A stretch of 64,000 nt of DNA, taken from IMG/VR virus record IMGVR_UViG_3300035501_000173, one strand, 5' to 3'. How positions within the stretch are numbered: the stretch's first letter is position 1; the number at the start of each line of letters is the position of its first letter. The DNA comes from a virus. Its lineage: Duplodnaviria; Heunggongvirae; Uroviricota; Caudoviricetes. The notes below the pieces were generated by a model. That model was given only the letters and a program-made list of their open reading frames with translations. It was not told the DNA's origin and ran no database searches. Position numbers and translations under genes: made by a program. Positions 1 to 34,083 of the stretch are shown in pieces.

Positions 1-296
1 CATCTTTAAAGGATGGTGGTGTGTATATTATAGGAATTAATTATCACAACACAAAATATTCTGGGATTTTTACATATGCAAATACAACAATGGAAGATGA
101 AGAGATTGTGTTACATTGTTGTAGTTCTCCCTCAGAGAGTTCACATGCTTCACAAGGACGAGTCTTTGCCAGAATTGCCTGTGGGGATAATTATGGAGCC
201 TTTGCTAAAACAACTAAATTTTAGTTTGCTTTAAGTAAAGCAGACTCTGCGATAACTACTTTTAATATTAAATTTAAATTATTTGCAATTCTATGA
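1..296 (+). CDS. 5'-truncated tail-fibre-associated protein (C-terminal domain only; 1 TAG read through)
   Basis: Frame is open from the window start; TAG at 222-224 is read through to TGA 294-296, which overlaps the next ATG (293). YSGIFT...EIVLHC...RVFA resembles the C-terminus of the next gene. Confidence 0.7.
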
Positions 297-2146
297 ACGT
301 AAAAGACGGGTATAAATAGCTTGGGACTGCTATTGTACATAGTTTAACCTTTAGTGACGGTAAATTAAGTTGGAAAAAATCAGATGACGGTAATTCATCA
401 TCAGACGCCGTCGTTGGAATCGTAGGTACATCCCCAGGTTTTACACCTGCTACAAGTACGGCGACTTCCACAGCCGCAACCAGTAGCCAATATGTGCTTA
501 CTGCTACCAAGGACGGAACTCCTACATGGAATGCGTTACCTGATAACGCTTTTAAAAATGATAATACTACATACAATGTAGTGTCAAGTACGGCTAATGG
601 TTTAGCCCCAAATACTGGTAATGCAGCTGCAGCAACTATAAGTTCTCAAAGTACTGAATGGGTATTAACTACTACAAGTGGCGCTGCACCAACTTGGAGA
701 GCACTTCCATCTACTGCTTTTAGTGATACAAAGTATTCTGCAAGTACTGGATTATCTTTATCTGGTACCACTTTTAGTTTGGCTAAAGCTACAAAAGACA
801 CAATCGGAGGTGTTAAGGTATCAACTGTTAATACTAGTACAGTATCTCCTACTACAGCTTCGGGTACTAATTACGGTTTAGCGGTTGATAGTAGTGGTTT
901 ATTGTATGTTACTATACCTACTACTAGTATAATTGCAGGAACTAGTTCAACAGCTACTTCTAATGGAAGTGTTACTGCTAATGGAAGTACTTCTACGGTT
1001 TATATTAATACAGTTGAAGGTAGTTCCGCTAAGGGATCTATATCAATTAAGGGTGGCGGTTTAACTACAGTTAGTGCTGCTTCAGGTGCTATAACAATCT
1101 CTACCTCTAATAAAACATTAACTATTAAAACTAGTAGCACTGCTTCTACAACATACAATGGAACTGCTGATGCAACTGTAGATTTATATTCACTTATTGC
1201 TTCAAATTCTGTACAGTTCTTGGGAGGTGTTGCATCAACTGATGAGATAATTGAAAAATCTACTGCTGGTTATGGTGACTATGTTAGAGCTACATCGGCT
1301 ATTACTATAGGTAGTACAACTGCTCATGCTGGTGACGTTATAATGCTTAATTCTAGTGATTCTGGTGCGTATGCAACGATAGATAACTGGGTAGTATTAC
1401 ACACAGAAATTGATACTAATACTAATACTCTGACCACTACCGGATCTATCTTAAAGGCAGATACTAATTTATATTTGCTAGGTGGAACTGGTAAATCCTC
1501 TACGTCATATCAAACGACTTATCTCAGTGGTGAGGGTGCTTATATTAATAATGGTTATGTATATTCTGGTAGTTCTAAAACTTTAACCGAAGCTACTAAA
1601 CTCTTTACGCTTAATAATACTGAAACAAGTGCAAGTACGTCAACAAGTATATATGCACCTACAGAGGGTGGTGCAGCAGGAACTATTTTAATCGGTTAGG
1701 GAACTACATCTAAACCTGCATGGTTATCTGCTGGATCTTCTGGATATGTATTAAAATCTAATGGTGCTGCAAACCCATCATGGGTTTCAGTAACTAATTT
1801 ACTATCATATTATTATGTACCCACAAGTGTAAGTGCTAGTTCATTAGCATTATCATCTGGAGCATGGGCACAGGTAGGTACAGCTTTAACAATTACAGCT
1901 GGAAGTACTTATGCAATTAGAATAGCTGTTACCGCTAATAGTATAGTATCTTACGCATCTGGAATATTTACAGCATCTACAGATGATCTAGCGTCTGATG
2001 AAATTCCATTGCACTGTTCTATTCCATCAGGTGGTTATAGAATTTACGCTAAGACTAAAGTTTCTGATAGTAAAACATATATATATCTTGCAGCTGATAA
2101 TAGTGTAACTGCAAGTGTAACTATTCATTACAAAAAATTAATTTAA
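293..2146 (+). CDS. tail fibre protein, 617 aa
   Basis: ATG 293 (MNVKDGYKQLG...), TAG at 317 and 1697 read through, TAA 2144-2146. Ser/Thr/Gly-rich fibre repeats (VLT..G.PTW.ALP..AF twice; GGVKV...YGLAVDSSG). Confidence 0.8.
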
Positions 2147-2152
2147 TTAATA

Positions 2153-5100
2153 ATGAAAAATTTTAGTGGATATTCAAAATAGAATTCAAGTGACTCCGAA
2201 GTCTTACTTGGTGGAGGAGGAACTAAAGCACTTTCTAATTTTAGTGGTACGATTTCTTGGGATGCCACTAATAACCAATTAAAAGTAACAAATGTAGCAG
2301 GTACCTCGTCCAATATAACTATTGTGCAAGCTACTAATGCTACTAATGCTACTAATGCTACTAATGTAATAGTAAGTTACAATAATACTAGTAATACTAA
2401 GTACCCAATTGTTTGGAGTAATCTATCTAATACATCAACTAATACTGCTAATTAGTTATATAAAAGCAGCAATTTTTATGTTAATCCTAGTACTGGTACT
2501 ATCACTGCTACCACTTTTAGTGGTGCTTTAAGTGGTAATGCTGACACAGCTACCAAACTTGGTACATCCACGGTAGGTAGTACTTCGCTTCCAATTTACC
2601 TTAATTCTGGTACTGCTACTGCCGTTACTGCCAGTTCATTGTTTTCATCCCTTACTAATTCTGGTAATAACATATCAATAACAATTGCTGGGTAGAACCG
2701 AACTTTGACTCCTGCATATGCTAGTACTGCGGCAAGTGCTACTACTGCCGAAAGACTTTCAGGAGGAACTCTTGGTACTTGGGGAACTCTCACTTCTGCT
2801 AATGGTTACTCATTAGTATCTGCTTATGACTACGGAAATACTTTAGGTGCTTATACATGGGCAGGAAAAAGTGGTCAGATGTCTATGTAGCTTGATGGGT
2901 ACTTCTATCAAAATGAAGGAAAATATAGGGTAGCTGATACTTCTGATTTATCTAAATATTTACCTTTAACTGGAGGAACTCTGACTGGGGCACTATCTGG
3001 AACAAGTATATCCATGTCAGGAGCTGCTACATTAGCATCTACTCTCTCGGTTAGCGGTGCTACTACATTGAATTCTTCTCTTGTAGTTAATGGAACAACT
3101 ACACTAAATTCAACAACTAATACAACAGCAGCAATCTCTGCTAATAAGTTCTTCCTTTCGGTTCCAAAAGGAGGCTACGTGAGAGGTGGTACCAATTCAG
3201 TAACCGGAGCCATCACAATTACACTACCAACATCACCAGGACAAGCCATGATCTCAATGTGGGTAGATGTATACAACTATGTAATTAATACGTCATTTAC
3301 CGTTCATGTTGGTGGTTATGCGTACGGTGGTTACAATCAATGGTATAATACCTTTGCAGTAGTCTATGGAGCTGCGTATACAGTTCGATTTGCATATTCG
3401 GATCCAAACTATATTATATATATTGGTGAAACGTCTAGCACATGGGCTTATCCCCAAATTCAAGTTCGTGATGTTATTATAGGTTATTCTCCAACTTACA
3501 GCAGCTGGGTAAACTCCATAGGTGTATCTTTGTCAACGTCTTTGGCAGATAGTTAGTCCACAATTACTCACTACGCATACACAACTAAGAATCTATCGTT
3601 CTATAATCTTACTTATTCAGCAGGAGCATTTAGTGCTGGTTCTTACACACCTAATGGCGCAGCTAAGACTATATACGTTCCAACTAATACGTCACATCTT
3701 ACAAATGATAGTGGCTTTATCACGTCAAGTGCAAGTATTACAGGTAACGCAGCTACAGCTACTAAATTAGCAACAGGTAGAACTATAAATGGTACAAGTT
3801 TTGATGGATCTGCTAACATTACTACCACTAATTGGGGAACATCTAGAAGTATTTATATAGCGGATAGTGATGGGTCAAATACAGGTTCTGCTGTTAGTGT
3901 TAATGGTAGTGCTAATGCTACTTTAAAACTCCCAGCTACTATTAAAGCAACCTTAACAGGTAAAGCAGATTCTTCTAACTGGTTAAATACTAATAGCACT
4001 CTGACCTACGGAGCAAGTGGTTTAAATTACTTTAATATTAATGGAACTGCTGGAACTACCGCTAATGAGAATGTTACTCCGACTTCTGCTTGGTATCATA
4101 TACTTAGAATGAATCATGCAAACTCCAGTGGATATTTTGTGGATATTGCTGCTGGTCTGAATAATGCTAATGGAATGTATTGGCGTCGTGTATCAGTAGG
4201 AACTAACTACGGATGGTATAAAATACTAGATAGTAATAATTATACTACTTATTGTGCTACAGCCTCTCATACTCATAGTTATGCCGGATCGTCAAGTGCA
4301 GGTGGAGCTGCAAACTCAGTAGCTAATAGTTTAACACTTAGCTATGGAGGTACTTCATCATGGACGTATAATGGAAGTGCTGCTAAAACTATAAATATTA
4401 AAGCTGGAACTAATGTAACTGTTAGTGGTGACTCAAGCGGTAATATTACAATCAGTTCTACAGACACTAATACACATTATTCAAGTAAAAACATTGTTAA
4501 CAGTGCTACAACTAGTACAAGTAATACAACTACAGCTTTAACTAATGGTAATGTATATTTAAATCATATAGAAAATGGTAGTGTAACTTCTTATCATAAA
4601 ATAAGTGGTTCGGGAGCTTCTACAGTTACAACTGATGCTAGTGGTAATATTATTATTAGTAGTACTAATACTACTTACACAAGTTTAAAGAACCCGAATA
4701 GTTTAACATTAAGTTATTATCCTAATACAGCTTCTAGCGCTTCAACTAGTTGGACATATGATGGTAGTGCGGCAAAAACTTTAAACCTAAAATATGGAAC
4801 CTATATTAATGTTAGTGGTGATACTAGCGGTAATATAAGTTTCAGTCACACTACTAGTGGTGTAACTGCTGGATCTTACGGTGCAACTTCAAATGCTACT
4901 CTAAGTCATTCTGGAACATTTAAGGTACCTTACTATACTGTAGATTCATACGGACATTTAACTGCTGCAGGAGCTATTACTTATACTTTACCTTCTGATA
5001 ATAATACCACATATTCTACTGCTACTTATAGTTACTTAGGTTTAATAAAACCTTGGTATAGTCATACAGCAGCATCTACTGGGCCTACGACAGGATCAGA

Positions 5101-6931
5101 TAGTACAGCAGTAGCTGTAAATACAATTACCTCAACTTCTGGTAAATATTATGCTATAGAGATGGATAGTAATGGTAGAGCTTTCGTCAATGTTCCTTGG
5201 AGTAACACTACTTACACATTTACCGCTAATAATCCTACACTTGATTGGAGTACTACTAGTACCCTAGGTACTATTGGTGGAACTACATTTAAGGTTACAA
5301 TGCCTGCTAATCCTAATACGGATACTAAAGTTACATCAGTAGATAATCATTACTCCCCATCGGCTAACAGTTCCTATGCTTTAGGAGCTACTTCTGCAGC
5401 AACATTAAGTTTTGGAGAATCTGTTATTACTGGCTTAACTAGAGATGCTAAAGGACATTTAACAGGAGTTGTTACAGGAACTTTACCAAGTAATCCTAAT
5501 ACAGATTATAAAGCAAGTTCTTATAATACTACATCTACAATATATTTAATAGGAGCTACATTATAGACATCAAGTACCTCTACAGGAACCACAACTTACA
5601 GTAACTCAGGTTGTTATGCTTCTGGTGGTTATTTGTATTCTGGAAGTGCTAAAGTTCTAACTAGTCACTAGACTATTTATAAACTTACTTTAAGTGCAGG
5701 AACATTTAGTGCTACTTCTTATACACCTAATAGTGCAGCAGCCACTGTTAATATACCTACAAGTACAAGTCACTTAACTTTTAATACTATAGCTACTTAT
5801 AATGGTTTAGGTGGTATTAAGCCTGCTTATAGCACTACAGGAGCCGTTACATTAACTACTACATCAGCGACATATACTGATACTCCTACTATAGCTACAC
5901 GTACGACAACAAGTGGAAGATTTTATGCTGTTGAGGTTGATGTAAATGGTGTACCCTATGTTAATGTGCCCTGGAGTAATACAAATACTACAACTACTGC
6001 TGCAAGTTCAAATTCTACTAGTAAACTTTATCTTATAGGAGCAACATCTCAAAGCAGTAGTGGTGTTACTACATACAGTAATTCAAGTTGTTATGCTACT
6101 AACGGCTCTTTATATACGAGTGGTATACGTACAAATTCTTTGTATAGTAAAACTTCTGATAAACTGTTATTAACCTGCAGTGATGCTTCAACTATCGAAT
6201 TAACCAAAACTTCTACTGCCACGGGGTCATTTACCCAAATTACACGGGCTGGAGTTTCTCGTTCTTGGCAATTAGGACGTGAGGGTGCTATAATTAGATA
6301 GACTACTGTAGATTCTTATTCTCCAGCTATATCTATAAAAACTACAGATGGTTCTTGGGAAATCGGGTCTTACGATAGCAGTACCTTTTTGAATTATCTT
6401 ACATTCTGTTATGTTCCTGACACCTCTTATACAAGTACTACAGCAACTACATATAGATTTTGTATAGATTCCACAGGTGCTCTTGTTGGAGATAAGGTAG
6501 GTAAGTATTTAAAATTATATGTAGATGGGGGAAGCACTGAGAATACTAATGTGTGGTCTTTTAATGGCTCGGAGTTAAAACAAATTAATTTCAAATCTGG
6601 TACTAACATATCATTAGTAGGTTCTAGCAATGCTATTACTGTAAATACTACAAGTACAATAACGGCAACAGCTTTCTACACCTCTTCTGATATTAAATTA
6701 AAGGAAAATATTAAACCATTATCCGAACATATTAGAGAGTTTAATTGGAAAGAATCGGGTAAAAAATCATACGGTATCATAGCGCAAGAATTAGAAAAAG
6801 AGTACCCAGAGTTAGTAATAGAAAAGGATGATGTTAAAAGAGTAGATTACACAGCAGCTCTATGTTTATTAGTTGCTAAATTAGAGAATCGAATAAAAGA
6901 ATTGGAAAATGTCATACGTAATAGCAACTGA
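2153..6931 (+). CDS. long tail fibre/spike with C-terminal Peptidase_S74 intramolecular chaperone, 1592 aa
   Basis: ORF pieces at 2705, 3014, 4109, 5966 and 6389 share one frame and are joined only by TAG. C-terminus TSSDIKLKENIK...YGIIAQELE...VDY...LENRIKELE is the S74 signature (SD at 6686-6691). Confidence 0.88.
2330..2365 (+). repeat. in-frame 9-bp tandem repeat (GCTACTAAT)x4 = (Ala-Thr-Asn)4
   Basis: Four exact copies read directly. Confidence 0.9.
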
Positions 6932-7991
6932 ATAGGATTGTAAAGATTTAGATAGTTCTATAACCATTAATAATGCTAATCATTGTCCAAATAAATCTGA
7001 AATTTTAGGATTTGGTGGGAATATTATAATATCTGGAGATTATGCTGATAACCAGTTAGTGGCTTTAAAAGATTTAGCTTCTCTGGGAGAAGTTGTTTGG
7101 AAATTTACCGGAGTTAATATTACTAGCAGCACTTCGCATGGTATAGATACTAATATTACATTTTCGGGATTTGATTGGTATGGTTTTGGTAACAGCTCAT
7201 AGAGCATGAGTTTTAGTTATAATATAACTGTAGGTGGGAAAGCTATTAGTTCTGCTTATTATAGTGTCGATGTTACTAATATTACCTGTGGTTATACAAA
7301 AACCCAGGGGTATATAAGCGCAAGTGCAAATATACAAAGCTGTTATACAAGTTGTACAGCATTTACTACGGATGCAACTTATGAAAGTACAAGTGGTAGT
7401 ACATACCCAATTTTTGGAACATCGTATCCTGGGGTTGTCTGGGCAAAAATTTAGTTAGACCTAAAATATGAAGATCAAATTTTAGCAACAAAATATATTT
7501 GTGCTGCTTTTGGGCCTTCTAATATAATGACCTCAGCGCATTATTACAGACCTGTAATAGGAATTTCGACAGTTTCTCCAACCTCGACTGCGAGCTATGA
7601 TATAACCGTTTGCGGTTTGTATACAAGCACAACACCGTCTACTAGTAATGTTGCGTATGTAGATTTAAACACACCCACTTCTTACAACGATGCCCACAAT
7701 GGTTTTACAATTACATACGATGCTAAGTAGCCCCGATACGTATTCCCACTTAATTGGGAGACCACAAATGCCCGATGGTAGTATCGAGAATTATCTAATC
7801 TGAACTCTGAAAAAACTATAGCAGCTAATACATTAGCTAGTTCGAGTTGTAAACTATTAGTAATACAATATAATACTACTACACAAAGTATAAACAGAGT
7901 GAAGAGTACAGACGTTCCAATAGAAGCAGGAATTTATTACTTTTTTAGAGTTGTTTCAGGATACATATATACAGTAACTATAAGTGCTTAA
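6909..7991 (+). CDS. hypothetical tail-fibre-associated protein, 360 aa
   Basis: ATG 6909 overlaps the end of the S74 fibre gene (MSYVIATEQDCK...GDYADNQLVALKDL). Joins ORF pieces 7206 and 7527 through TAG; TAA 7989-7991. Confidence 0.75.
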
Positions 7992-8355: not shown

Positions 8356-8814
8356 ATGACGACTAATGAAGTATTGACTAAGCAGAATTTCCTCACCAAG
8401 CTTCTTTTGAAAAGCGGTGACTCTGAACTTAGTAAGAGCCTTAAAATTAAGGTAATGGCTATGAGAATTGAATATGCAAAAGTTAGAAAGCAATTTGATG
8501 AAGATTTACAAGAATTTGTGAAGGATCTTGCTCCGGAGCGTTTTAAAGAGCTTCAAGCTATTCCAGAGGATTCTCGTACTGATGCTGAAAAAGAAGAATT
8601 GCAAAAGCTGACTGATAAGATTAACTCTGATTATAACGCATATGTCAATGAAAGGGGTAAAGATGCAGTAGAGGTTTCTAGAAAATCTTTTACCGATGAT
8701 GAATATAATGAACTTGTTGAGGTAAATGCGGATAATGATGTTGATATTAATGGTACTAAGTTGACCGCAGCAGACTTTTTGGAAATACTTTACAGTTTAT
8801 TTGTAGAAGAATAA
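8356..8814 (+). CDS. acidic helical hypothetical protein, 152 aa (TAG-free; possible tail-fibre assembly chaperone)
   Basis: Complete ORF ending in TAA and followed by a terminator. The chaperone role is inferred from position only. Confidence 0.75.
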   Translation: MTTNEVLTKQNFLTKLLLKSGDSELSKSLKIKVMAMRIEYAKVRKQFDEDLQEFVKDLAPERFKELQAIPEDSRTDAEKEELQKLTDKINSDYNAYVNERGKDAVEVSRKSFTDDEYNELVEVNADNDVDINGTKLTAADFLEILYSLFVEE

Positions 8815-8867: not shown

Positions 8868-11800
8868 ATGGGATAGAATATAGAAGTTATAACTCAAATA
8901 GTCCCCAAAAATAATGCTAATCTAGCCGTAGCTGATGTTAATGATTTGAAAGGTGGTTATATACAAGTAGAAACATTAACAGAGTTAGACTATTTTAAGT
9001 AGCACTACAGCAATCGCTTAAAGATTGGAATGCTTGCTTATGTAACAAATGACAATGATTTTTATCAATTATGGGAAGAAGGTTGGAAAGTTTGGCAACC
9101 TAAATCTGGAGCAACTCTAGAATTATCTAAAGTTAAATCTATTGATGAACTAACTAATAGTACTTACGAAGTAGTTGGTAATGTAGTCTTTGTTACAGAC
9201 TTAAATGCTTTACGTTGGTATGATGGTAATACTTGGAATTCTTTTTCAAGAATTTATATCCAATCTCAAGCACCTGATGATACTAATGGTATATGGGTAG
9301 ATACAGATGAAAAGGGAATAAGCAAACCTGAATCTGTAACAACCTCTTTACTGAAAATGATTAATGTTCTTGCTAAACGTGTAAGTGCTTTAGAGTACAG
9401 AGAACAGCAATTACAATCAGGAGGCTTTGACAATAATATGTATAATTTATATGATGAGATAATTGGTGTCGATCCCGGAGAGGATATTAATGGCGTTGTA
9501 GATGAGGAAGATGCCGAAGGTACTACAGAGTAGACAGAGTATGACGAAAAAACTCTATTAGAGAATACCTTACTAGCAGATTCCTCAGAACCCATTACTT
9601 ATAAGGATACTTTACCAAATGTTAAGCACTTACAAATAAAATGGGGAACTTACGCAGATATGGTTAAGTACAAAGATTGCTTCTTACCTGCGGAATTATT
9701 ATATTGTTATAATACAAGAGAATTATGGATTAAAGATCCAAAAACCTATCAATTAATTAAAATTGGAGCTACTACTGTTAGTGGTGATGTAGACTCCGAA
9801 ATAGAGGATATTATGAATGGAATTATTCAAGACGGTGATTACATAAGTAGTATAGCATTTGTGGATATGGTAGATAACTCAAAACATTATACATTTAGTG
9901 TTCAAAACGGAGAGCTAGATTTATAGTGTGAAGAGGAGGTTGTCAATCCTGTAACTAGTACACAATAGGCATCCTTTACATCAACTGATGGTACTTAGTA
10001 CTACAGTACTCCTTACAATCCAGCAGGATCTGATAATACTGCTAGTGGTGGTAATGCTATGCTATGGATACATGCGGTTTATACGGCTGGTAATCCCGAT
10101 AATACATATACAGAAGAAACTAGTTCAATTAATGCTAATTATAAAGATTTAGGAACATTAGGTTATAGTGATTATAATCCCTGTAATTATAGTTTTATTG
10201 AATTGGTAAATACTAATCCCGTAGATATTAACCTTAATGGCTTTTTCTTACACTATACAGAAAAAACTAGTTTAGGCTGGATTTCTTTACCCTTAAAGGG
10301 AATCATTAAAGCTAAAAGTACTTATTTAATTCGAGCTTCAAGAACTGGTAAAGATGATTTTGCTAGAATTAAAGTAGGAACTCCTGATATTTATTTCCAT
10401 AAAGGGATAACTTATAATAATAGTATCTTTGAAAGTTCTGCTAATAAGCATAGTATTTGGGACGAGGACGGATTGTTATTAATAAACAATTATTGCTCAT
10501 TCTTACTTACTGGGCCTTGTTACTCTTCTACCGATAGTACTATGTCTGATCTTGCTTATACTAAGAACCAATTAGATAAAAGTGTATTTACTTGTAGTTC
10601 TCCTTGGTATGAATCCAATAGTATTGCTGGAGTAATTTATGGCTATTGTGACTTAGTTGGTTTTGGTAGTAGTATGCCTGCTGTATTAAATGGAGCTGCA
10701 TCACCATTAGTAAGTAATCGTCTAGCTATGCAATATTATTCAATGGATAATGTATCACAAGCTTTTAAAAATTCTACGCTTAATTCATCTAGTGGATGGA
10801 AGTCTAGTAAAACATGGACTACTGTAGAATTACTTACTAATAATGCAGCAATTGATGTTCCTAAATACACACCGAAGAATAGTAAATCTGGAAAGAATAT
10901 ATTTTACAATAAACACTTAATCGAAGATGGGGTTCCAGTAATTGTTACATGTTCCTTTGGTTATAATCCACATACTACTAGATGTTTCGCTTGGGTTAGT
11001 AAGGGTTATAGAGATGAATATTTGCAATATAAGAAAGAGGGTGATTCCGACTGGATTACCGTAGAATCCTTTAAATCTGGAGATGGTAGAACTTCTGATA
11101 AAAATTGGAATGATTCTTGCTATGATAGAATCCGTAGTGTAACTACCGATGGTACTTATTTTACAGCTCATAAAGTAATAATTGATTTGTATGACTGGAA
11201 AGGAGATGGGCCTGAAACTTCTGAAACTTACGTATACAGAGTAGGTTATAATAATAACTGGACTGATGAAAAGAAATTTACTCTTAGAAATAGACAGGAT
11301 ATTATTAAGAATGGATTCTCCTTTGTACAAACTACAGACTAGCAAGGATTTAATCAAGAAGAGTATGAAGAATGGAAGGTTGTTGCAGATCATATTAACG
11401 ATTATTATCGGGGTAAATCTGGAGAACCTTTTATAGAGTTTATGATAAACACTGGAGATGCTACATAGAATGGTAATAGAATAAATGAATGGATTGATTA
11501 CTTCAATGCCGGTGCTTCTATTACTGATATTATGGAACAACAATATACAGTAGGTAATAATGACTTATGCCCCACAGTTCCTTATGAATTAGGATTAGGA
11601 AGTGATACTACTAAAGTAAATCCTATTAATGTAGAATACTTCTTTACCTATGAGCATCCTTTTGAAGTACCTAAATCTAATGGAGTACACTTACCTAGTG
11701 TATATTCTTTCATTTACGGTAATACCTACTTCTTGTCAATGAACTCTGAATTTACAGATTCTAACAATGCCTGCGAAGACTTATATGGTTAGAGTAGTTA

Positions 11801-12611
11801 CTATGTACAAAATAACTGTATGAAAATTTGGGCAGATAATGATATGGCACAACTACCAGATTCCATTAATTGGAAGATTGCTTACTGTCATGAAGCTCCA
11901 TTTACCCTACTTATTAATAGTACTATTACTAATTATGATGGTGAAACACCTGCATCTGATAGAGGTAGTGTAACATCACACTTTAATTCTCCGGGTAATT
12001 GGTGGTTTAGTAAATTCTTAGAGGATAACGGATTTAACTTGTGTATATGTGGACATAAGCATACTTACACAACTTCCCATTATTTACATGATAATGAGGA
12101 GGATAGAATGAAGCCTTATGTTTATAAAACTTATAGTACTGATACTTTAATTACAGATACAATACAAAAGAAGTTAGTTAATATAACCGATGATACTACT
12201 AAGCATTATGTGAAATATACAATGTGTTAGGCATCTGGTTATAAGTTAACATCTAATAAAGAGCTTCCTGGCCCAAGTATTGGTTGGTTAGAGTGTTATT
12301 ATCCTGCTTCTGTATCTGGCACAAGTGTAAGTGTAAATACTGGACAGCGTTATCCTCATTACATAGTTTGGAATATTGGAGAAGGTACTGAAATTGAAGG
12401 ACTTGCTGATCAAGAAACTCCAGAATCTAGAGAAAGAATCTTAGGTAAAGCTTATAAAATTAGACGTGGTTAGGATAATAATAATCTAATGTTTAATTAC
12501 AATGATAGAGTATTTACCTATAAAGATGTAACTCGTTTAGGGGGAAATGGAGAAACTGAAAATGGAAATTTAAATATAATTGTTGAAAAATTACCTTATA
12601 CTGGTGAATAA
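8868..12611 (+). CDS. multidomain protein: lamin-tail-like domain + FN3-like purple-acid-phosphatase N-domain + calcineurin-like metallophosphoesterase, 1247 aa
   Basis: Pieces 9030, 9660, 10059, 11532 and 11820 are in frame via TAG. LTD-like NYSFIELVNTNPVDINLNGFFLHY (~10185). Metallophosphoesterase motifs TTDQQ (11337), TGD (11457), GNND (11553), CHE (11889), GHKH (12051). Confidence 0.82.
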
Positions 12612-15600
12612 TGGGATTAATTAAATATTTCAACAGTGAAACCCAGAGTTGGGAAATTGTAGCTGCTGCTGATGCTGCTAATATTTCATTACATAATGAG
12701 TATTTGTAGGATGCAGACGAAGCTACAATTTCTACAGCTCGTGCTTTTCAAAAAATAAATAATAGGCTTTCAAAACTAGAACATAACTTAGCTTGGATTT
12801 ATTTAAATGGAGCTAAAGGAGGTTCTGGTGGAAGTGGTGGAAGTAGCAGTACATATACTATAACAATTAAGGATAATAAGTAGACGTTCTATACATCATC
12901 TAATTCTGTAACTATATCAATGATGATTAATAGTGGTTCTACTAAAAAATCTTTTTATGTTAACGCCATTAATATGTCTAATGGTAAATATTTGGTACAA
13001 GCTGAGTAGCATTCTAGTATGACTTACTTTAACTTTACTATTAATAATTTACCATCTTCTACTAATTACATTTACTTACAAGCCTATGATTCTTCAGATA
13101 ATTATACAGAACTTGTAGAAATTACTGTAAATGTTGGAAGTATTGGTTTAGGCTAGGCTACTACACCTAATGCCACTTACGTCATTGGTGCTAATAATAG
13201 TACCGCAGCTAGTTTTTAGGTATCAAATAAAACAGGTGATGTAGCTTACTTATTAACATATCAATCTAGAGAATCCGATCCTTTACAGGATGCTTTGGAT
13301 TTAAATTTAACTTACGCTGATAAATTTGGAGCTACATATATAAGTTCAGTTCCTAGTAGTGGAACAGTTGGTACTTATGCAATTGACTTTGAAGAATTCT
13401 TAGCTTAGACTTCTGTAGGAAAGAGTGTAACATTCAAAACTGTATTATACTAGCCAACTATTGGTTTTACAAGTTCTTACTATACTAATACAATTACTGT
13501 AAGTTCTGGAACTTCGTTAGTTGCAATTCTATACAACTTAGGTGAATCAGAATCTGAGTGTATTTAGTACCCATTTAAGTAGAATAGCTACGTATCATTT
13601 GGGGTATTACTTTATTATGAGCCTACTGATATATCTCAATTCTACTATAAGTATAGTCTATATAATATGACGAACGATGAGGCTTTTTATTCAAGTAATG
13701 GTACTTTAAGTAAAGCTACATCAGGTTATACTTTAATGAATTGCCCAACTAGTAATTTTGCAGTAGGTGATTACATGATAGTATTTGAAGCCAGTGCAGA
13801 TGGTACTTATACAGAAGGGTCTACATATTCTAAAGCTATCGGTTACTTCACAGTAACAGAAAATGATGATATAGAATTTAAAGATTATCCTGGGGCTTTA
13901 TTAGCTAGATTTGGGGCTTTTAACTACCCAGATGCTGCAACTACTACTTGGAATTATCAGGTTCCTACTTCTGGCGATTATGCCTTTACTACATGGCCTG
14001 CTAGTACTTCACAGCCTACTACCACATTAAATATTATTAATAAGACTAATACTACTGGTATTGAATCTAATGGTTACAACCGTTTAAATCTTTCGGGAAC
14101 TACGTATGCTACTATAGATGTTTCTAAGTACTTTGTAAACTCCTCCGATAACTATATATTCGGCCCAGGTTTTAGTATAATGACTACTTATGAATATAAT
14201 AATGTTGATAGTAGAACTCCGTCTAATGAAACTATTCTTAGTTTCGGAACATACGAAGATGGGGAACTTACTGAAGGCTTTGAAATTAATTCTGATTATA
14301 TTACAGTAGCATATCAGTCTTCTAAAATTAAGACTAAGACTCCTATAAAAGCGGAGAACTTATTTGGTTCGGATTCAGATTAGAAGACAACTTCTACTAC
14401 AGTAGCTTTAAATGTTTGGGTAACTAAGGAAGTAACAAGTGTAACTAACGGATAGGAAACTACTATAGCAACTGTATATTTAGCTCTTTATATTAATGGG
14501 TCTATGTATAAGTGTATGCTTGTTTCAAGAGATAACAGTGCTTGGGTATTTGATGATAAAAAAATATATTTAGGTTGCCGAAATGATTTAACTAATTAGG
14601 CGGACTGCTGTATATATGACTTTAAGTTATATTGCCAAAAACAATCTGACTTATCTATTGTACATAATTGGGTTTCTTCTGTAGAATAGGCTAGTAAAAC
14701 CACATCTGGAATTAGTGATACTTTGGACTAGATCCTTAGAAAGCGTAATCTATTCTCTACTAGTGGTGGTTTTGATAACTTATTATTTGATCCATCTACT
14801 GGAGATTACTATGATGATGAAAGTGTGGTACTCTCCAGAATTAAAACTAGTTATAACACTTCCGATTACGAGTTAGACTATCCTATTATAAGTATTACAG
14901 ACGAAACATAGAATAGTGATTTATACCAAGTTATTAACGCTACTTGGAATGCTGGTGATAAGTATAATGGTGAGCTAATAACAGAGAAGTCTTGGAAAGT
15001 AAATGTTAATATCTATACTAAATATGGAGAAACTAATATATTTAGTAATGACGATGAATTAAAACCTACCATATCTATACAAGGTACTTCTACTTTAGCT
15101 AACTTGGGAAAGAACCTCGAATTTAAATCTGGTAAAGTAGATAATGATACTGATAAATTATTACAAATAAATGGCTGGCTTCCCGAAAATGAATTTACTT
15201 GGAAAGCCGATGTAGTTGATTCAGCGCATGCTAATAATGTTGTAATTGGTAACTTCATTAATAACACTTCTTATATGCCTAATTATGAAGGTAATGGTTA
15301 TTCTGCATCTTCTGCTGAACTTGGTAATAAGATTAAAAAGACTTCTGCAGGTTTCCCATGTTTAATATTTATTACATATGTAGATGGTTCTACACACTTC
15401 TTGGGAGTTTACAACTTTAACCTAGGACGCTATGCTTATTTTAATCTAGGTTTAAAGAAACTTGAAAGTTTTGAATATGATTCTGGTGATAATGTATCAG
15501 AAGATGGGCCTCACGTAATATCTAATTATAAGTATTCTGTACCTGATAACGTGTACTCTATGGAAGTAGCTGATAACTTTGGTGATCCCGAATTAATGTT

Positions 15601-18600
15601 TACTTAGGCTGATGAAAAGATTACATCTCATATGTTAGAGTGTCGTTACACATCAGATAATGAAGCTACTGCCATTTCTAAAATTACTAGCAATTTATGT
15701 ACTGTACTTGCTAAAGGTATTAACAACTTATCATATGCTAAGAAAACCTACAACGAGGATTATGATGCAAGTAAAGGAGAGGAACTATTCCCAACTATAA
15801 CGGATGCTAATGGTAATATACAATATTGGCAAGGTGATAGTGTATCAGCATCTGAAGAAACTATTAATGAGGCTTTAGACCTTGAAGTTGCTAGAAAATA
15901 CTTAGTAGTAATTCTAGTGTTTGGCATGGTGGATTCCTCTCTTAAAAATATGGTATTACGTTCTTGGAATGGTAAAAAATGGTATACATGTTTTTATGAT
16001 ATGGATTCTGCATTAAAGAAAGATAATGCAGGCGCTGCTAATGTTCCTTATAATGCACATTACAATTATTACTTTAACCTTCCGGGTAATCAAACTGCTG
16101 GAGATAGTTTTACTACTGGTGTAACATGGTTCCCTAAAAGTGTGGAGAGTGATGATTGGAGTTACGTATATGCAGGAATGAAATCTGCTGATGATACTAC
16201 ACCTAACAGAATCTGGAATATAATACGTTATTGTGATACTTCTATTAATAATGATTCAACTTCTAAATATAGTACTTTGGCTAAATACTATTGGGATTTA
16301 CGTACTAGTTACATTCCAGATCCTGAATAGTTTATCGAGGATAATTTCGTAGCGTATGTAAATAAAACAGGCCCAGCTTTATTTAATTATGACTATCGTA
16401 AAAAGTATGTAAGCTATGGACAAGTCTGGGATGGTTCGAGATTAGTTTCTAATACGTCTAACTCCTAGGCTGAGTACTTAGATGGGCCTCGAATTGCAGA
16501 AGTAAAGGATTGGTTTGTAAAAAGAATTAAATTCCTAGATTCTGTATATTTAAATTGGGCTACAAGTATAACTTCACTTGGTGATAATTGTTATTTTAAT
16601 AAAACTTGGAATGCTCGTCAACAAGCCGCAAGCACTACTAGTATTCAACCATTAACTTCTGATCAGCAAATAAAAATATAGTATCAAGTATCCTCAGATA
16701 ATCCAGTATATTTATGGATAAATGAAACTGAGACTACTTATAGTTTAACTACACAATCTTAGGGTAACTTATGGTACTTAAAAGGAGCTGGTAATATAAC
16801 TAGTTTTGATAACTTTAATACTTTAGGTTGGGTTCATTTAGGAAACTCTGCTTGGAATTTCACTTTACTAGAAAAGCTTAATTTAAGTGGCTTAACTATT
16901 TAGGGATGGAGTGATACGTTAAGTAACATGCCTAACCTAAAGGATTTAAATATGTATAATACTGTACTAAAATCTGATACGTAGTCTTCCTTTATTGTAA
17001 GTTTGTCCGCGGTTAAAACCCTCCAAAAATTAAATCTCGGAGGTACTTGTAATGTAACTAGTTTTACACTACCAACCACGGGATCTTTACAAGAACTTAG
17101 TATGCTTAATAATGCTAACATTATTAGTATACCAACTACTTCTGATGGATCATCTGTCTTGTAGAATCAGTCAGGTTTAGCTGTATTACAATTAAAAGGA
17201 ACTAATATTAAAGATTTATCTGGTAATAGAGCTTTAAGTAATTTACCATCATTAAAGACACTTACTTTACCAGATACTCTTTAGAAATTAGAAATTTCAA
17301 ATTGCGGTATAGAAGACTTAACTATTACTTGGTCAGATACCACTAAATTAAGTAATTTAACTAGTGTAGTAATATATAACTGTTAGAGTTTAAAATCTAT
17401 TAGTTTATCTGGGTAGAATAATTTAACTACTATTAGTATAGCAGAATGTCCTAATATTGAAACTATAAATCTTTATAAGGTTACTGCTAATTCTGTAACT
17501 ATTAAGTTTTCTGAGTTACACAATTTGAAAAGTTTAAATATAGCATAGACTGATATATTTACAGAGTTGGATTTAACTAACTGTCCAGATATATCAGATT
17601 TTAATGCTCAGCAGTGCAGGAGTTTAAAATCTGTAAAATGTACTAATAATAACGAAAATCCAATTGAACTCATACAACAAGCATTTAAAGATTGTACATC
17701 TTTAACTACTTTAACTGGTAATTTCCTTATTTAGGGTGCTTCTGTATTTGAAAATTGTAGTGTTTTACAATTTGATAAATTGTTAAATTCTGGTGACTTG
17801 GTAATAAGCTTTGATCAAACAGTATCGACATTCTCTAAATGTTTTAAAGGGTGTAGTTTACTGGGAACTAATAGTACTTCAACTATTTGGATTCGTGAGT
17901 TCTTAAAAGGTTTAGGTAGTAGTACAACTGACATTTCTTATATGTTTGCTAATACAGGAGCTTAGTTCTCTCTTAGCTCTAGTACGCCTTTATTTACAGT
18001 TTGTGCTAATCTAACTAATATAGAAGGTCTCTTCGAGAACACTAACGTCTGCGGATACATTTCTAAGGACACTTTAGGAAATATTAGTAAAATTATAAAT
18101 GCTAGTTATGCGTTTGCAAATAGTGGTGCTGCTCGTTATATTAGTAATAACATATTTAAAGCTGATTCTGAATCTCCGGAACACAACTGGAATTTCAGAA
18201 TTTTAAATAATGTAGATTATATATTCCAAGATAATACTAATATAAAATCAGTAGTTTCTGAAATAGATTATACAGAAGTGCCTTTACAATCAAAGGATTT
18301 CTTCTACAATCTAAATAACTGTATACATAGTAAAACTAAAACAGATACTTCTGATAATACAAGTATTTCTAATCCAGATTGGCCCTATCCTTGGGGTGTA
18401 TTTAGTGGAACTTCTATTAAAATGGAAGTAAATCTGGATGCTAATAATCACCCTTACTTATTCCATCTGTCAGACTAGTCTTATAAAAAAGAAGTAGTCT
18501 ACTTGGAAGATAAATTATACTCAGGTATTAAATTAATATTAGATGAAAGCTGTGATAGTTCTTACTTATTTGGAGGAACTTCACATGAGGTTGGAACCTC

Positions 18601-20128
18601 AACAGATGATATTATTGGTTATATACCAAAGTTTGCTAGAATCACTTCCCCATTTACGGCAAGTACTGATTTAAAATTAAATCTAGCACAAATAAAAGGA
18701 GAGGAATTTTTTGATGAAAGCACAACTTCATTTATACAACCATTTTCTGGGATGGCATTGACGGATGCCACTACCATTCCTGTAGATTTATTTAAAGGTG
18801 CAAGTAAAGTTGAATCTTTGGAAGGCTTCTTCTAGAATTTAGGCTTGAAAACTCCTAGTGGTGCATCTTACGAAATTTCCACCGATTTATTCGCGGATTG
18901 TACATCACTAAAAAATATATCCTACCTATTTAGTGGTTGTAATGAATTTAAGATAACATTAAATGGCAGAATATTCCAAAACTGCCCTCTTGTTTACGTT
19001 CAAGGTGCTTTTTAGAATTCTGCTATTTTAAATATTCCAGAAGAATTATTTTACAACGCACAAGGGTAGAGAAAGATAACAAATATGTCAAATGTTTTCT
19101 CAGGTTGTTATAATTTAGGTTATGGTGCAGACTATTAGCCTTATTATGTTTCTACTGACAGCTACGGAACTAAATGTAATTGGTCTGATCATGTTACTCT
19201 CTTAATTGAGGATGATGCGGAAACAGAAATAGTACAAAGTTCTTATTCTGTTCCACATGACTTATTCCATTACTGTGCTGCAAATGCAAGTATAAGTAAT
19301 GTTCTTGGCAGTCTATTCTGGAAACAGCGTGTAGCAACATATCAAGGCGACAATGTTTATAAAATAACAGAAGGGGATAAATGGATAGGGCCTAATTGCA
19401 CCATACCTTCTGATATTTTATAGGGAGAACAATTAAAGTTATCTACTACTCTAACATACATATTTGCCAATACACATTTTCAACCTTCTTACACAGAAGT
19501 TCCAACTAAAGCTAATAATTGGATGCGAGGTAATTTATATCCTGATGGACTCTTTAATGGATTTAAGAATTTATCCACTATTACGGGTATGTTTGCAAAT
19601 ACAATTATTGATCCGTACTGTATGATAAATTCTGATTTATTCCAGTATACAGATGGAGATTCTATTGTTTACTTACCATTAACTGATATTAGTTATTGCT
19701 GGTATAAATGCACATTCTAGTATTTAGCAACTGAGGATGGTGAAGAAGTAGGTTCTGGATAGCTCGATCCAGAAATGTTTGATAAGTTTACTCAACTTAC
19801 AAACATGTCTTACTTATTTGGGAATGATTATATTACGGCTAGTCAGTATGGTTTAGTTTACCTTACTTCTAAACTCTTTGAAAACTGGAAGACTGACGGA
19901 GGTACTATTAATATAGGCTATATGTTTGCGTACAATCCATTAAATGCTTATGATGCTGGTGGAGATTCTGTTGAAATTACAGCACCTACATTTAGTTAGG
20001 TTAGTAGTTTTACAAATACTGTTAGAACCTACTTAGCTGGAATTTCAGAAAGTAAGATTGCAAATGCAGATGATATAAAATTGTTATCTCCAGCACGTTA
20101 TCCACAAGCTTGGGATACTACTACTTAA
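12611..20128 (+). CDS. giant tail/surface protein with LamG-like region, CotH-like atypical kinase domain and LRR/BspA-like repeats, 2505 aa
   Basis: TAATG-coupled to the previous gene; all listed fragments 13667-19999 are in one frame. CotH-like motifs IQGTSTL..GKN, WKADVVDSAHANN, GFPCLIF, FLGVYNFNLG, VDSSLKN (15932-15949), FYDMD (15992-16006). LRR-like repeats run from ~16800 to 20000. Confidence 0.8.
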
Positions 20129-33066: not shown

Positions 33067-34083
33067 ATGTTAAATTATACTACTACTACCATCGTAAATG
33101 ATGGTTCTACCGTAAGTGTCAAGGAAATTGGCTCTACTGGTAATAAGAAACTTGTCGTAGCTTTTGCTCCCGAATTGTGGATTGATGATAAGCATAAGCC
33201 CACAGTTTTGGCTAAGACTCCTTATCAGGCAGCTCAGAAGGCTAAGGCTACTATCTCTAGTCTTCCTACTGATTCAGGTGTTTATCGTATTGCTTTGTAC
33301 ATTCGTTTGCGTAATAACCAAAATCCTTACTTTAGTAATGACTGGACTTTCAAGGGCAAGCCTTTGTTTATTGAATTTAATGGTGGTTCTACTGCTAAGC
33401 AGATTGCTTCTTTAGTTAAGAAGTATTCTCTTGTACAATATGGTTATGACCTCGTAAAGGTTAAGGCTAATGGTAGTTCTTTGGAAATTGAAGCTGTTGA
33501 CCAGTGGGAGATTTTCATGGATCAAGATGCTAATACTGGCGTTAAGGTTCAAGAGTTGGCTACTGTTGATATGGCTGGTAAGGTTGTTGCTTCTGGCACT
33601 ATTCCCGCATCTCCTACTCACGAAGCGTTTGTAGATAACACTTCTGTGACTGTAACTGTTGATAACGGTAATGAAGCCTTTGGTGACTTTGCCCACTTGG
33701 TTAAAGACTTACGTCTTCCGACTGGTGCTAACTTGCGTTGGCAAGGTATTGCTCAGGGTGATGTATTTGGTGACGAGCCTAACGATGATAGACCGTTGCC
33801 TACTGGTAAGTATACTCAATATACTATTCAGTATGATTCTGAGCGTGGTATTCTCCAGCAAACAGCTCTTGGTGGTCTTGCTACTTCTAGAACTGTTCAT
33901 GTATTCTATGTAGAGTCAGAAGCTGTTTCTGCATTTGATGCAGCTTTAGAGGAAGCTGGCTTGACCATACCAGAATCTAGTTCTTCTAGTTCTACAACAA
34001 CTGATTCTAGCTCTTCTAGTTCATCTAACTCTTCAGATTCTGATTCAGATCCTTCTAAACCGGGAGAGGATGGAATGATTTAA
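33067..34083 (+). CDS. putative auxiliary capsid (decoration) protein, 338 aa, TAG-free, Ser-rich tail
   Basis: Complete ORF with MCP-like codon usage; FGDFAHLVKDLRLPTGAN motif; followed by a terminator. Confidence 0.65.
   Translation: MLNYTTTTIVNDGSTVSVKEIGSTGNKKLVVAFAPELWIDDKHKPTVLAKTPYQAAQKAKATISSLPTDSGVYRIALYIRLRNNQNPYFSNDWTFKGKPLFIEFNGGSTAKQIASLVKKYSLVQYGYDLVKVKANGSSLEIEAVDQWEIFMDQDANTGVKVQELATVDMAGKVVASGTIPASPTHEAFVDNTSVTVTVDNGNEAFGDFAHLVKDLRLPTGANLRWQGIAQGDVFGDEPNDDRPLPTGKYTQYTIQYDSERGILQQTALGGLATSRTVHVFYVESEAVSAFDAALEEAGLTIPESSSSSSTTTDSSSSSSSNSSDSDSDPSKPGEDGMI

Follow-up and report, generated by a model that had tools for sequence, protein, structure and literature searches.

A pair of adjacent giant genes, encoding a protein with a metallophosphoesterase like that of purple acid phosphatases (PAPs) (P0001) and a protein with a CotH-type kinase domain (P0002), lies in a 64,000-nucleotide stretch (the window) of the virus record IMGVR_UViG_3300035501_000173. 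The record comes from a crAss-like phage; it is 109 kb long and CheckV estimates its completeness at ∼60%. The two genes overlap at their stop and start codons and are read with TAG as a glutamine codon. Comparison of the corresponding loci argues for a single horizontally mobile two-enzyme cassette that has been co-inherited across unrelated large phages. The genes and their junction are as follows.

8868..12611, + strand: gene for P0001 (1247 aa, 11 TAG codons), with a fibre-like N-terminus, a lamin-tail-like domain and a PAP-like metallophosphoesterase
12609..12613, + strand: TAATG stop/start overlap between the genes for P0001 and P0002 (sequence ...GAA TAA TGG...)
12611..20128, + strand: gene for P0002 (2505 aa, 38 TAG codons), a giant lectin-like, CotH kinase and leucine-rich repeat (LRR) protein

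Two giant genes read with TAG as glutamine

Under the standard bacterial code (table 11) the region from 8868 to 20128 is broken into short open reading frames (ORFs). The frames stay fragmented when TGA is read as tryptophan (table 4), which was rejected as the code for the region. With TAG read as glutamine the whole window resolves into a single-strand array of large genes. In this reading the ORFs of the 1247-aa and 2505-aa proteins are exact and the TAATG joint that a first-pass annotation of the window had placed between them is seen in the sequence, confirming the two coupled giant genes as a real feature. The reading is also backed internally, since TAG codons of the window coincide with alignment columns that are invariant for glutamine in the homologues (Q825, Q867 and Q1121 of P0001 and Q999 of P0002). 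ARAGORN found no tRNA genes in the 64-kb window, so any TAG suppressor tRNA would be encoded elsewhere in the record.

Recoding is not confined to the window. In five loci (L097, L099, L101, L092 and L003) and a further 14 IMG/VR loci, in-frame stops stand exactly at the invariant glutamines of the phosphoesterase metal-site motifs (D*QG, DQ*G and GDxx*). Several lineages thus write functionally critical glutamines with a recoded stop codon. A 208-aa antisense ORF (10917-11543, − strand) inside the phosphoesterase gene is most likely spurious, because the + strand frame is strongly conserved.

Linkage of the two genes across large phages

The first-pass annotation had treated the two genes as a functional pair, a proposal that depended on their being linked in relatives. 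When each domain was searched by tblastn against 50,697 phage records, 36 records were matched in either search, with an identical breakdown by phage group and identities of 25-39%. The carriers include Crassvirales of several families (crAss002, IAS virus, cr7_1, cr52_1, cr107_1 and others), the ∼178-kb Bacteroides phages DAC16, DAC19, DAC20, DAC22, DAC23 and SJC03, Lak megaphages and Bacillus phage G. The phosphoesterase gene is directly upstream of the giant gene in every annotated case, and the same arrangement was found where the pair was also checked, in crAss002, cr7_1, cr52_1, DAC16, Lak-B2, phage G and the loci L009 and L104. The junctions are tight: the genes overlap by 4 nt in cr52_1 and are 2 nt apart in crAss002, in phage G and in L104, the closest relative.

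A wider survey covered 80 viral and 12 ‘genome’ loci, all fetched through the CotH domain. A P0001-type domain is present on the same strand in 90 of the 92 loci, and its end is 2.4-4.2 kb (median 2.5 kb) away from the CotH domain that follows. In the remaining two the DNA available upstream is shorter than 2.1 kb and the loci are unscorable, so that linkage holds in all 90 informative loci. Both active-site signatures, D-[SN]-x-x-K-N...Y-D-[MV]-D for the kinase and DQQG/GDxxQ/GNND/GH[KH]H for the phosphoesterase, are kept in essentially all of ∼100 loci, including phage G, at domain identities to the window of 25-54%. The pairwise divergences of the two domains are correlated (r=0.93 for 27 non-redundant loci, a value reached in none of 2,000 permutations), a correlation to which shared ancestry would by itself contribute.

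The capsid protein of the window matched only Crassvirales, at ∼26% identity, and gave no match in DAC16, Lak or phage G. The cassette thus has a wider distribution than the capsid gene, an argument that its two genes were transferred horizontally as a unit. Two contigs binned as bacterial metagenome-assembled genomes (MAGs), one of 360 kb from a ‘Bacilli’ MAG (L098) and one of 400 kb from an ‘Erysipelotrichaceae’ MAG (L100), also carry the cassette. A cellular chromosomal home was considered for them and rejected, since a large-terminase match lies on the same contig in each case; they are probably megaphages or large prophages that were binned as bacterial.

P0001 contains a PAP-like metallophosphoesterase

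The regions of P0001 are as follows.

8868..9620, + strand: lineage-specific N-terminal region, aa 1-∼250, a candidate virion anchor (in tblastn ranges, distant lineages are similar only from ∼aa 252 onward)
10185..10382, + strand: lamin-tail-domain-like beta-sandwich, aa 440-505 (sub-threshold in P0001)
10908..11267, + strand: N-terminal FN3-like domain of the PAP-type two-domain fold, aa ∼681-800 (structure alignments start at model residue ∼252, which is aa 681)
11295..12377, + strand: binuclear metallophosphoesterase catalytic domain, aa ∼810-1170

The calcineurin-like phosphoesterase motif that had been noticed from the sequence is well founded, with Metallophos (PF00149) scoring 27.9-30.2 bits against a gathering score of 21.5 and invariant metal-binding blocks. 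Pur_ac_phosph_N is matched only faintly. The lamin-tail-like motif reported with it fares less well in P0001 itself, where PF00932 reaches 23.8 bits over aa 440-505, below the threshold of 34.3, although PF00932 is recorded in many of the collinear homologues. Such homologues number more than 840, at 40-59% identity. PHROGs contains nothing for P0001, and a search for look-alikes of the N-terminus of a homologue gave only weak leads, to phage-fibre-like proteins.

A structure model of aa 430-1247 was obtained with a predicted local distance difference test score (pLDDT) of 83. From aa 681 to aa 1235 the model matches two-domain purple acid phosphatases, with E=2e-16 and a template-modelling (TM) score of 0.69 for the kidney-bean enzyme (1KBP). 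Lower-ranked matches include PhoD (3e-11), mammalian PAPs and the SMPDL3/acid sphingomyelinase phosphodiesterases, and among the Swiss-Prot models the leading matches are Rv2577, plant PAPs and ACP7. The FN3-like motif of the first-pass annotation is accordingly a real domain, but it is the N-terminal beta-sandwich of purple acid phosphatases.

Five PAP blocks occur in order in P0001 and are invariant in the family: T-D824-Q-Q826-G, G-D864-x-x-Q867 (with A-T between in P0001), G-N897-N898-D899, H1008 and G-H1063-K-H1065. Six of the seven classical ligand positions are kept, as invariant D824, D864, N897, H1008, H1063 and H1065. The tyrosine metal ligand of the GDxxY block gives purple acid phosphatases their colour. 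By motif order, this tyrosine is replaced in P0001 by invariant Gln867, and the histidine of the GNH[D/E] block by invariant Asn898. The expected resemblance to purple acid phosphatases is thus borne out for the two-domain fold but not for these two residues, and P0001 is best described as a PAP-like metallophosphoesterase rather than as a PAP in the strict sense.

P0002 contains a CotH-type kinase domain

The regions and motifs of P0002 are as follows.

14228..14710, + strand: probable Laminin-G/ConA-like lectin region, aa ∼540-700 (from collinearity alone)
15068..16549, + strand: CotH-type atypical kinase domain, aa 820-1313 (from fold, family alignment and a marginal Pfam match)
15932..15949, + strand: catalytic-loop motif D1108-S-S-L-K-N1113 (D-x4-N; family consensus D-S-x-C-K-N)
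15992..16006, + strand: F-Y-D1130-M-D1132, a candidate metal-binding (DFG-equivalent) motif 22-24 residues past D1108
16838..17560, + strand: classical LRRs, aa ∼1410-1650
17561..20125, + strand: repeat-rich, lineage-variable C-terminal region, aa ∼1650-2505, a candidate receptor-binding part

Sequence-only searches of the PDB with the CotH-like segment, the family profile and two family members returned chance matches only, and comparison of folds was therefore needed. An AlphaFold2 model of aa 820-1350, built on the family alignment, has a pLDDT of 81 and a predicted TM score of 0.85. Its only significant matches in the PDB by Foldseek are the B. cereus CotH structures 5JDA and 5JD9 (probability 1.0). 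By VIA-align it matches B. cereus CotH with Z=22.8 and a root-mean-square deviation of 3.4 Å over 302 of 359 residues, followed by PI4K-II alpha (Z=11.1) and HipA (Z∼10). Among the Swiss-Prot models, B. subtilis CotH and four CotH proteins of Rhizopus take the first five places, and the viral structure collection BFVD contains models labelled ‘CotH kinase’. The model thus bears out the CotH kinase assignment of the first-pass annotation, whose D-x4-N and FYDMD motifs fall in the translation exactly where it had placed them. D1108, N1113, D1130 and D1132 are invariant in the 46-member family alignment. On the basis of the model and these motifs, aa 820-1313 are predicted to fold as a CotH kinase that is apparently active.

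The Pfam CotH profile (PF08757) is matched across positions 88/111-221 of 322, and individually by 15 of the 46 aligned family members (best E=1e-8). NCBIfam gives only weak LRR-effector matches on P0002. There are 488 full-length relatives of P0002, nearly all ∼2,500-2,900 aa long with the CotH domain in the same position, and an exhaustive HMMER search of 1.84 billion representatives found only 479 relatives of the CotH domain, mostly giants. Laminin_G_3 scores above threshold at aa ∼511-660 of the homologues P0095 and P0111, and no Laminin-G match was found in P0002 itself; look-alikes of the N-terminus of a homologue gave a weak Ig-like/LamG lead. Within the C-terminal region, aa 2039-2169 match an unnamed PHROGs family (phrog_9915), and there is a faint match to DUF285.

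Genomic context and appendage-like architecture

The first-pass annotation had placed the pair in a tail module; it lies in a TAG-recoded late/structural block beside Ser/Thr-rich fibre-like genes, with the capsid gene ∼9 kb downstream. Upstream of the pair (293-7991) are three consecutive genes for proteins of 617, 1592 and 360 aa, in which serine and threonine make up 25-32% of the residues. A 49-aa segment is common to the first two (47% identity), and the C-terminus of the 1592-aa protein is long-tail-fibre-like (phrog_33119). On the other side, at 33067-34083, a 338-aa capsid-proximal protein has a poly-Ser/Thr/Asp tail (aa ∼288-338; 55% Ser+Thr over 40 residues). By analogy with the Ser-rich targets of CotH in spore coats, this tail is a speculative candidate for a CotH substrate. 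The genes that come after the pair in cr52_1 encode an endolysin and a tail protein whose annotation notes similarity to the major tropism determinant; a reverse transcriptase lies beside that tail protein.

In tblastn comparisons with distant lineages, similarity starts at ∼aa 252 of P0001 and at aa 264-820 of P0002, and stops near aa 1717 of P0002 except within the short segment 2021-2172. The enzymatic core is thus conserved, whereas the N-terminus is specific to each lineage and the C-terminus, with its LRRs and other repeats, is variable, a pattern typical of exchangeable host-recognition appendages.

Proposed role of the pair

We propose, with about even confidence, that P0001 and P0002 are virion appendage proteins whose kinase and phosphoesterase have a single phosphate-bearing target in common, at the interface between the phage and the host surface, where the location, the activities and the common target are all inferred. 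The two proteins would be translated together by way of the TAATG coupling after a switch to decoding of TAG as glutamine, and would most likely both be mounted on the virion as host-recognition appendages. The kinase would add phosphate from ATP, which is available in the infected cell or beside lysing cells, and the phosphoesterase would remove or cleave phosphate esters of surface glycopolymers or proteins. A narrower form of the proposal, close to the writer/eraser pair suggested by the first-pass annotation, is tentative and carries roughly half that confidence: a phosphate-editing system with one shared substrate, which would be either an appendage of the phage or a polymer of the host surface. 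The CotH domain would write phosphate esters on it when assembly or lysis makes ATP available, and the Gln/Asn-variant PAP-like enzyme would erase or cleave them outside the cell. If it is true, phosphate editing would be a covalent switch for adsorption or host range in several phage groups that are among the most abundant in the gut.

Several observations weigh against this interpretation. With the canonical histidine and the PAP tyrosine ligand missing, the chemistry of the phosphoesterase may differ from that of purple acid phosphatases. The Pfam match of the kinase segment is marginal, at 24.0 bits when the segment is scanned alone (gathering score 23.8) and 25.4 bits in a genome search, and CotH goes unreported by Pfam when the whole of P0002 is scanned. 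The D228Q and D251A mutants of B. subtilis CotH, in which the two aspartates are 23 residues apart, are inactive (PMC7821199). We infer that D1108 and D1130/D1132 are equivalent to D228 and D251 from motif, spacing, fold and invariance, and not from superposing individual residues. Because ATP is scarce outside cells, a kinase reaction there is problematic. In phage G the pair is surrounded by non-structural genes, a long way from the main tail module. No virion proteomics or structural evidence that would place either protein in a virion was found for any orthologue, neither in the crAss002 paper (gp19/gp20) nor in the phage G papers, which omit gp352/gp353. Finally, the locus L007 is a true exception to the pairing, a CotH giant without a phosphoesterase neighbour. 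A complex prediction with the PAP-like core of P0123 and the CotH domain of P0004, which are adjacent on a 164.5-kb contig, scored 0.00 (‘no answer’) and is neutral on binding.

The closest competitor, a more specific form of the writer/eraser idea of the first-pass annotation, confines both reactions to the virion. In it the CotH domain phosphorylates Ser/Thr-rich virion proteins during cytoplasmic assembly and the PAP-like enzyme strips the marks later, for example after release, as a maturation or activation switch. The attraction is that ATP is present only during assembly, in parallel with CotH acting on the spore coat in the mother cell, and that, with the two reactions at different times, neither the shortage of ATP nor a futile cycle would be a problem any longer. 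CotH has a single proven activity, to phosphorylate Ser-rich structural proteins while assembly is under way (PMC7821199). Both active sites of the pair are conserved, and suitable proteins are at hand in the upstream fibre-like proteins and in the poly-Ser/Thr/Asp tail encoded at 33067-34083. These Ser/Thr-rich neighbours are, however, unconserved across the lineages that share the pair, and the lectin-like, LRR and lamin-tail-like modules suggest an external ligand; we regard this explanation as unlikely, if not by a wide measure. Somewhat less probable again is that the proteins are not virion components at all but late effectors, acting in the infected cell or freed at lysis to modify the host envelope or neighbouring cells, as in superinfection exclusion or lysis-associated remodelling. 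The restriction of ATP to the inside of cells or to lysis would suit such a role, as would the position of the phage G pair outside the tail module and the endolysin adjoining the pair in cr52_1. The fibre-like sizes (1247 and 2505 aa), the lineage-specific N-termini, the variable C-terminus and the neighbouring fibre-like genes fit appendages better, and no export signal was noticed, although no search was aimed at one.

The adjacency and coupling of the genes would be equally expected of structural partners. P0001 could then be a receptor-destroying or receptor-exposing phosphoesterase and P0002 a separate CotH/LRR receptor-binding protein, linked by one fibre complex and not by a substrate. 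Phosphatase domains in Crassvirales tail spikes have indeed been discussed as depolymerase-type functions (PMC10136315), but two independent enzymes leave the invariant kinase active site unexplained, and we consider this improbable. Least probable is a catalytically silent adhesin, in which the CotH fold is a binding module as in the CotH invasins of Mucorales and the metallophosphoesterase fold is a scaffold. The Rhizopus CotH invasins among the structural matches and the marginal Pfam score are in its favour. The catalytic and metal-binding residues are nevertheless near-invariant over the ∼100 loci, and binding-only scaffolds would not be expected to keep their active-site residues at such divergence.

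Comparison with known systems

In common with the B. subtilis and B. cereus CotH proteins (PF08757; 5JD9 and 5JDA), the P0002 domain has an atypical kinase fold and a D-x4-N motif with a downstream D-x-D at matching spacing, and, as with CotH, its production accompanies the assembly of a large extracellular particle inside a cell. Unlike CotH, to which it is only ∼10-12% identical, it is ∼140 residues longer (aa 820-1313 versus 359 residues) with insertions, is encoded by a phage, is embedded from ∼aa 820 in a 2505-aa lectin/LRR giant and belongs to a tight clade of mostly giant proteins. P0001 resembles 1KBP, the sweet-potato PAP, ACP7 and M. tuberculosis Rv2577 in joining an N-terminal FN3-like beta-sandwich to a metallophosphoesterase, and it keeps the five-block motif order of the PAPs with its Asp, Asp, Asn and three His. 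It differs from them in having Gln for Tyr, Asn for His and D-Q-Q-G in block I, in being phage-encoded and in its fusion to a lamin-tail-like domain and a ∼430-aa fibre-like N-terminus.

Orthologous pairs with the same families, order and architecture are already annotated: crAss002 gp19 (‘phosphatase’) and gp20 (‘transferase’), cr52_1 gp10 and gp11 (‘internalin-like, receptor-binding protein’), the cr7_1 genes for a ‘phosphatase’ and a ‘spore coat protein-like (CotH kinase)’ protein, phage G gp352/gp353 and DAC16_85/86. Against these, the window pair is a TAG-recoded copy at 25-39% domain identity (tblastn). Phage CotH domains fused to hypervariable C-type lectin domains were described by Benler et al. 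in 2021, who called them unstudied (PMC8008677). P0002 shares with those proteins a CotH kinase fold in a phage protein of host-recognition type. Its targeting part is instead LRR/lectin-like, the obligate phosphoesterase partner is undescribed in that work, and beside the pair in the window neither a reverse transcriptase nor a hypervariable element was noticed. Cytoplasmic phage kinases of the T7 gp0.7 type belong to a different kinase family and serve early host takeover or abortive infection (PMC8008677); they too are phage-encoded protein kinases, whereas P0002 is a late, TAG-recoded, giant multi-domain protein with adhesin-type modules.

Our literature searches found no paper that combines CotH, phage and metallophosphoesterase or that describes an obligate pairing. 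The statement of the first-pass annotation that no phage system of this kind has been characterised is thus true as regards characterisation, but GenBank already labels the genes as phosphatase and CotH-kinase-like, and phage CotH domains have been mentioned as unstudied (PMC8008677). The components come from known superfamilies, and the window pair is one more member of a set of annotated, uncharacterised pairs. Few viruses of the human and animal gut are as abundant as Crassvirales and Lak-type megaphages, and the way in which they recognise their Bacteroidota hosts is poorly understood. A linked kinase and phosphoesterase exchanged as a unit would imply a phosphate chemistry without characterised precedent in phage-host recognition or virion maturation, and bears on the role of CotH-family kinases outside sporulation. 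The cultured carriers crAss002 (B. xylanisolvens), the DAC16-like phages (B. thetaiotaomicron) and phage G make the hypothesis directly testable.

A recurrent upstream gene and an unpaired homologue

A third co-conserved gene was sought, and only one upstream ORF recurs, in closer relatives alone.

8356..8814, + strand: 152-aa ORF upstream of the pair

It is found at the same relative position in 42 loci from closer relatives, at 37-68% identity, and is absent from that position in crAss002, DAC16, Lak and phage G. It has no family match and could be an assembly factor.

At the exceptional locus L007, the possibility of a hidden pair was rejected, the gene upstream being unrelated to the phosphoesterase (hhalign probability 0.2%). 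The L007 gene (1665-7607) encodes a 1980-aa CotH/LRR protein without the usual ∼650-aa N-terminal region and adjoins a block of four or five glycosyltransferase genes that run on the other strand.

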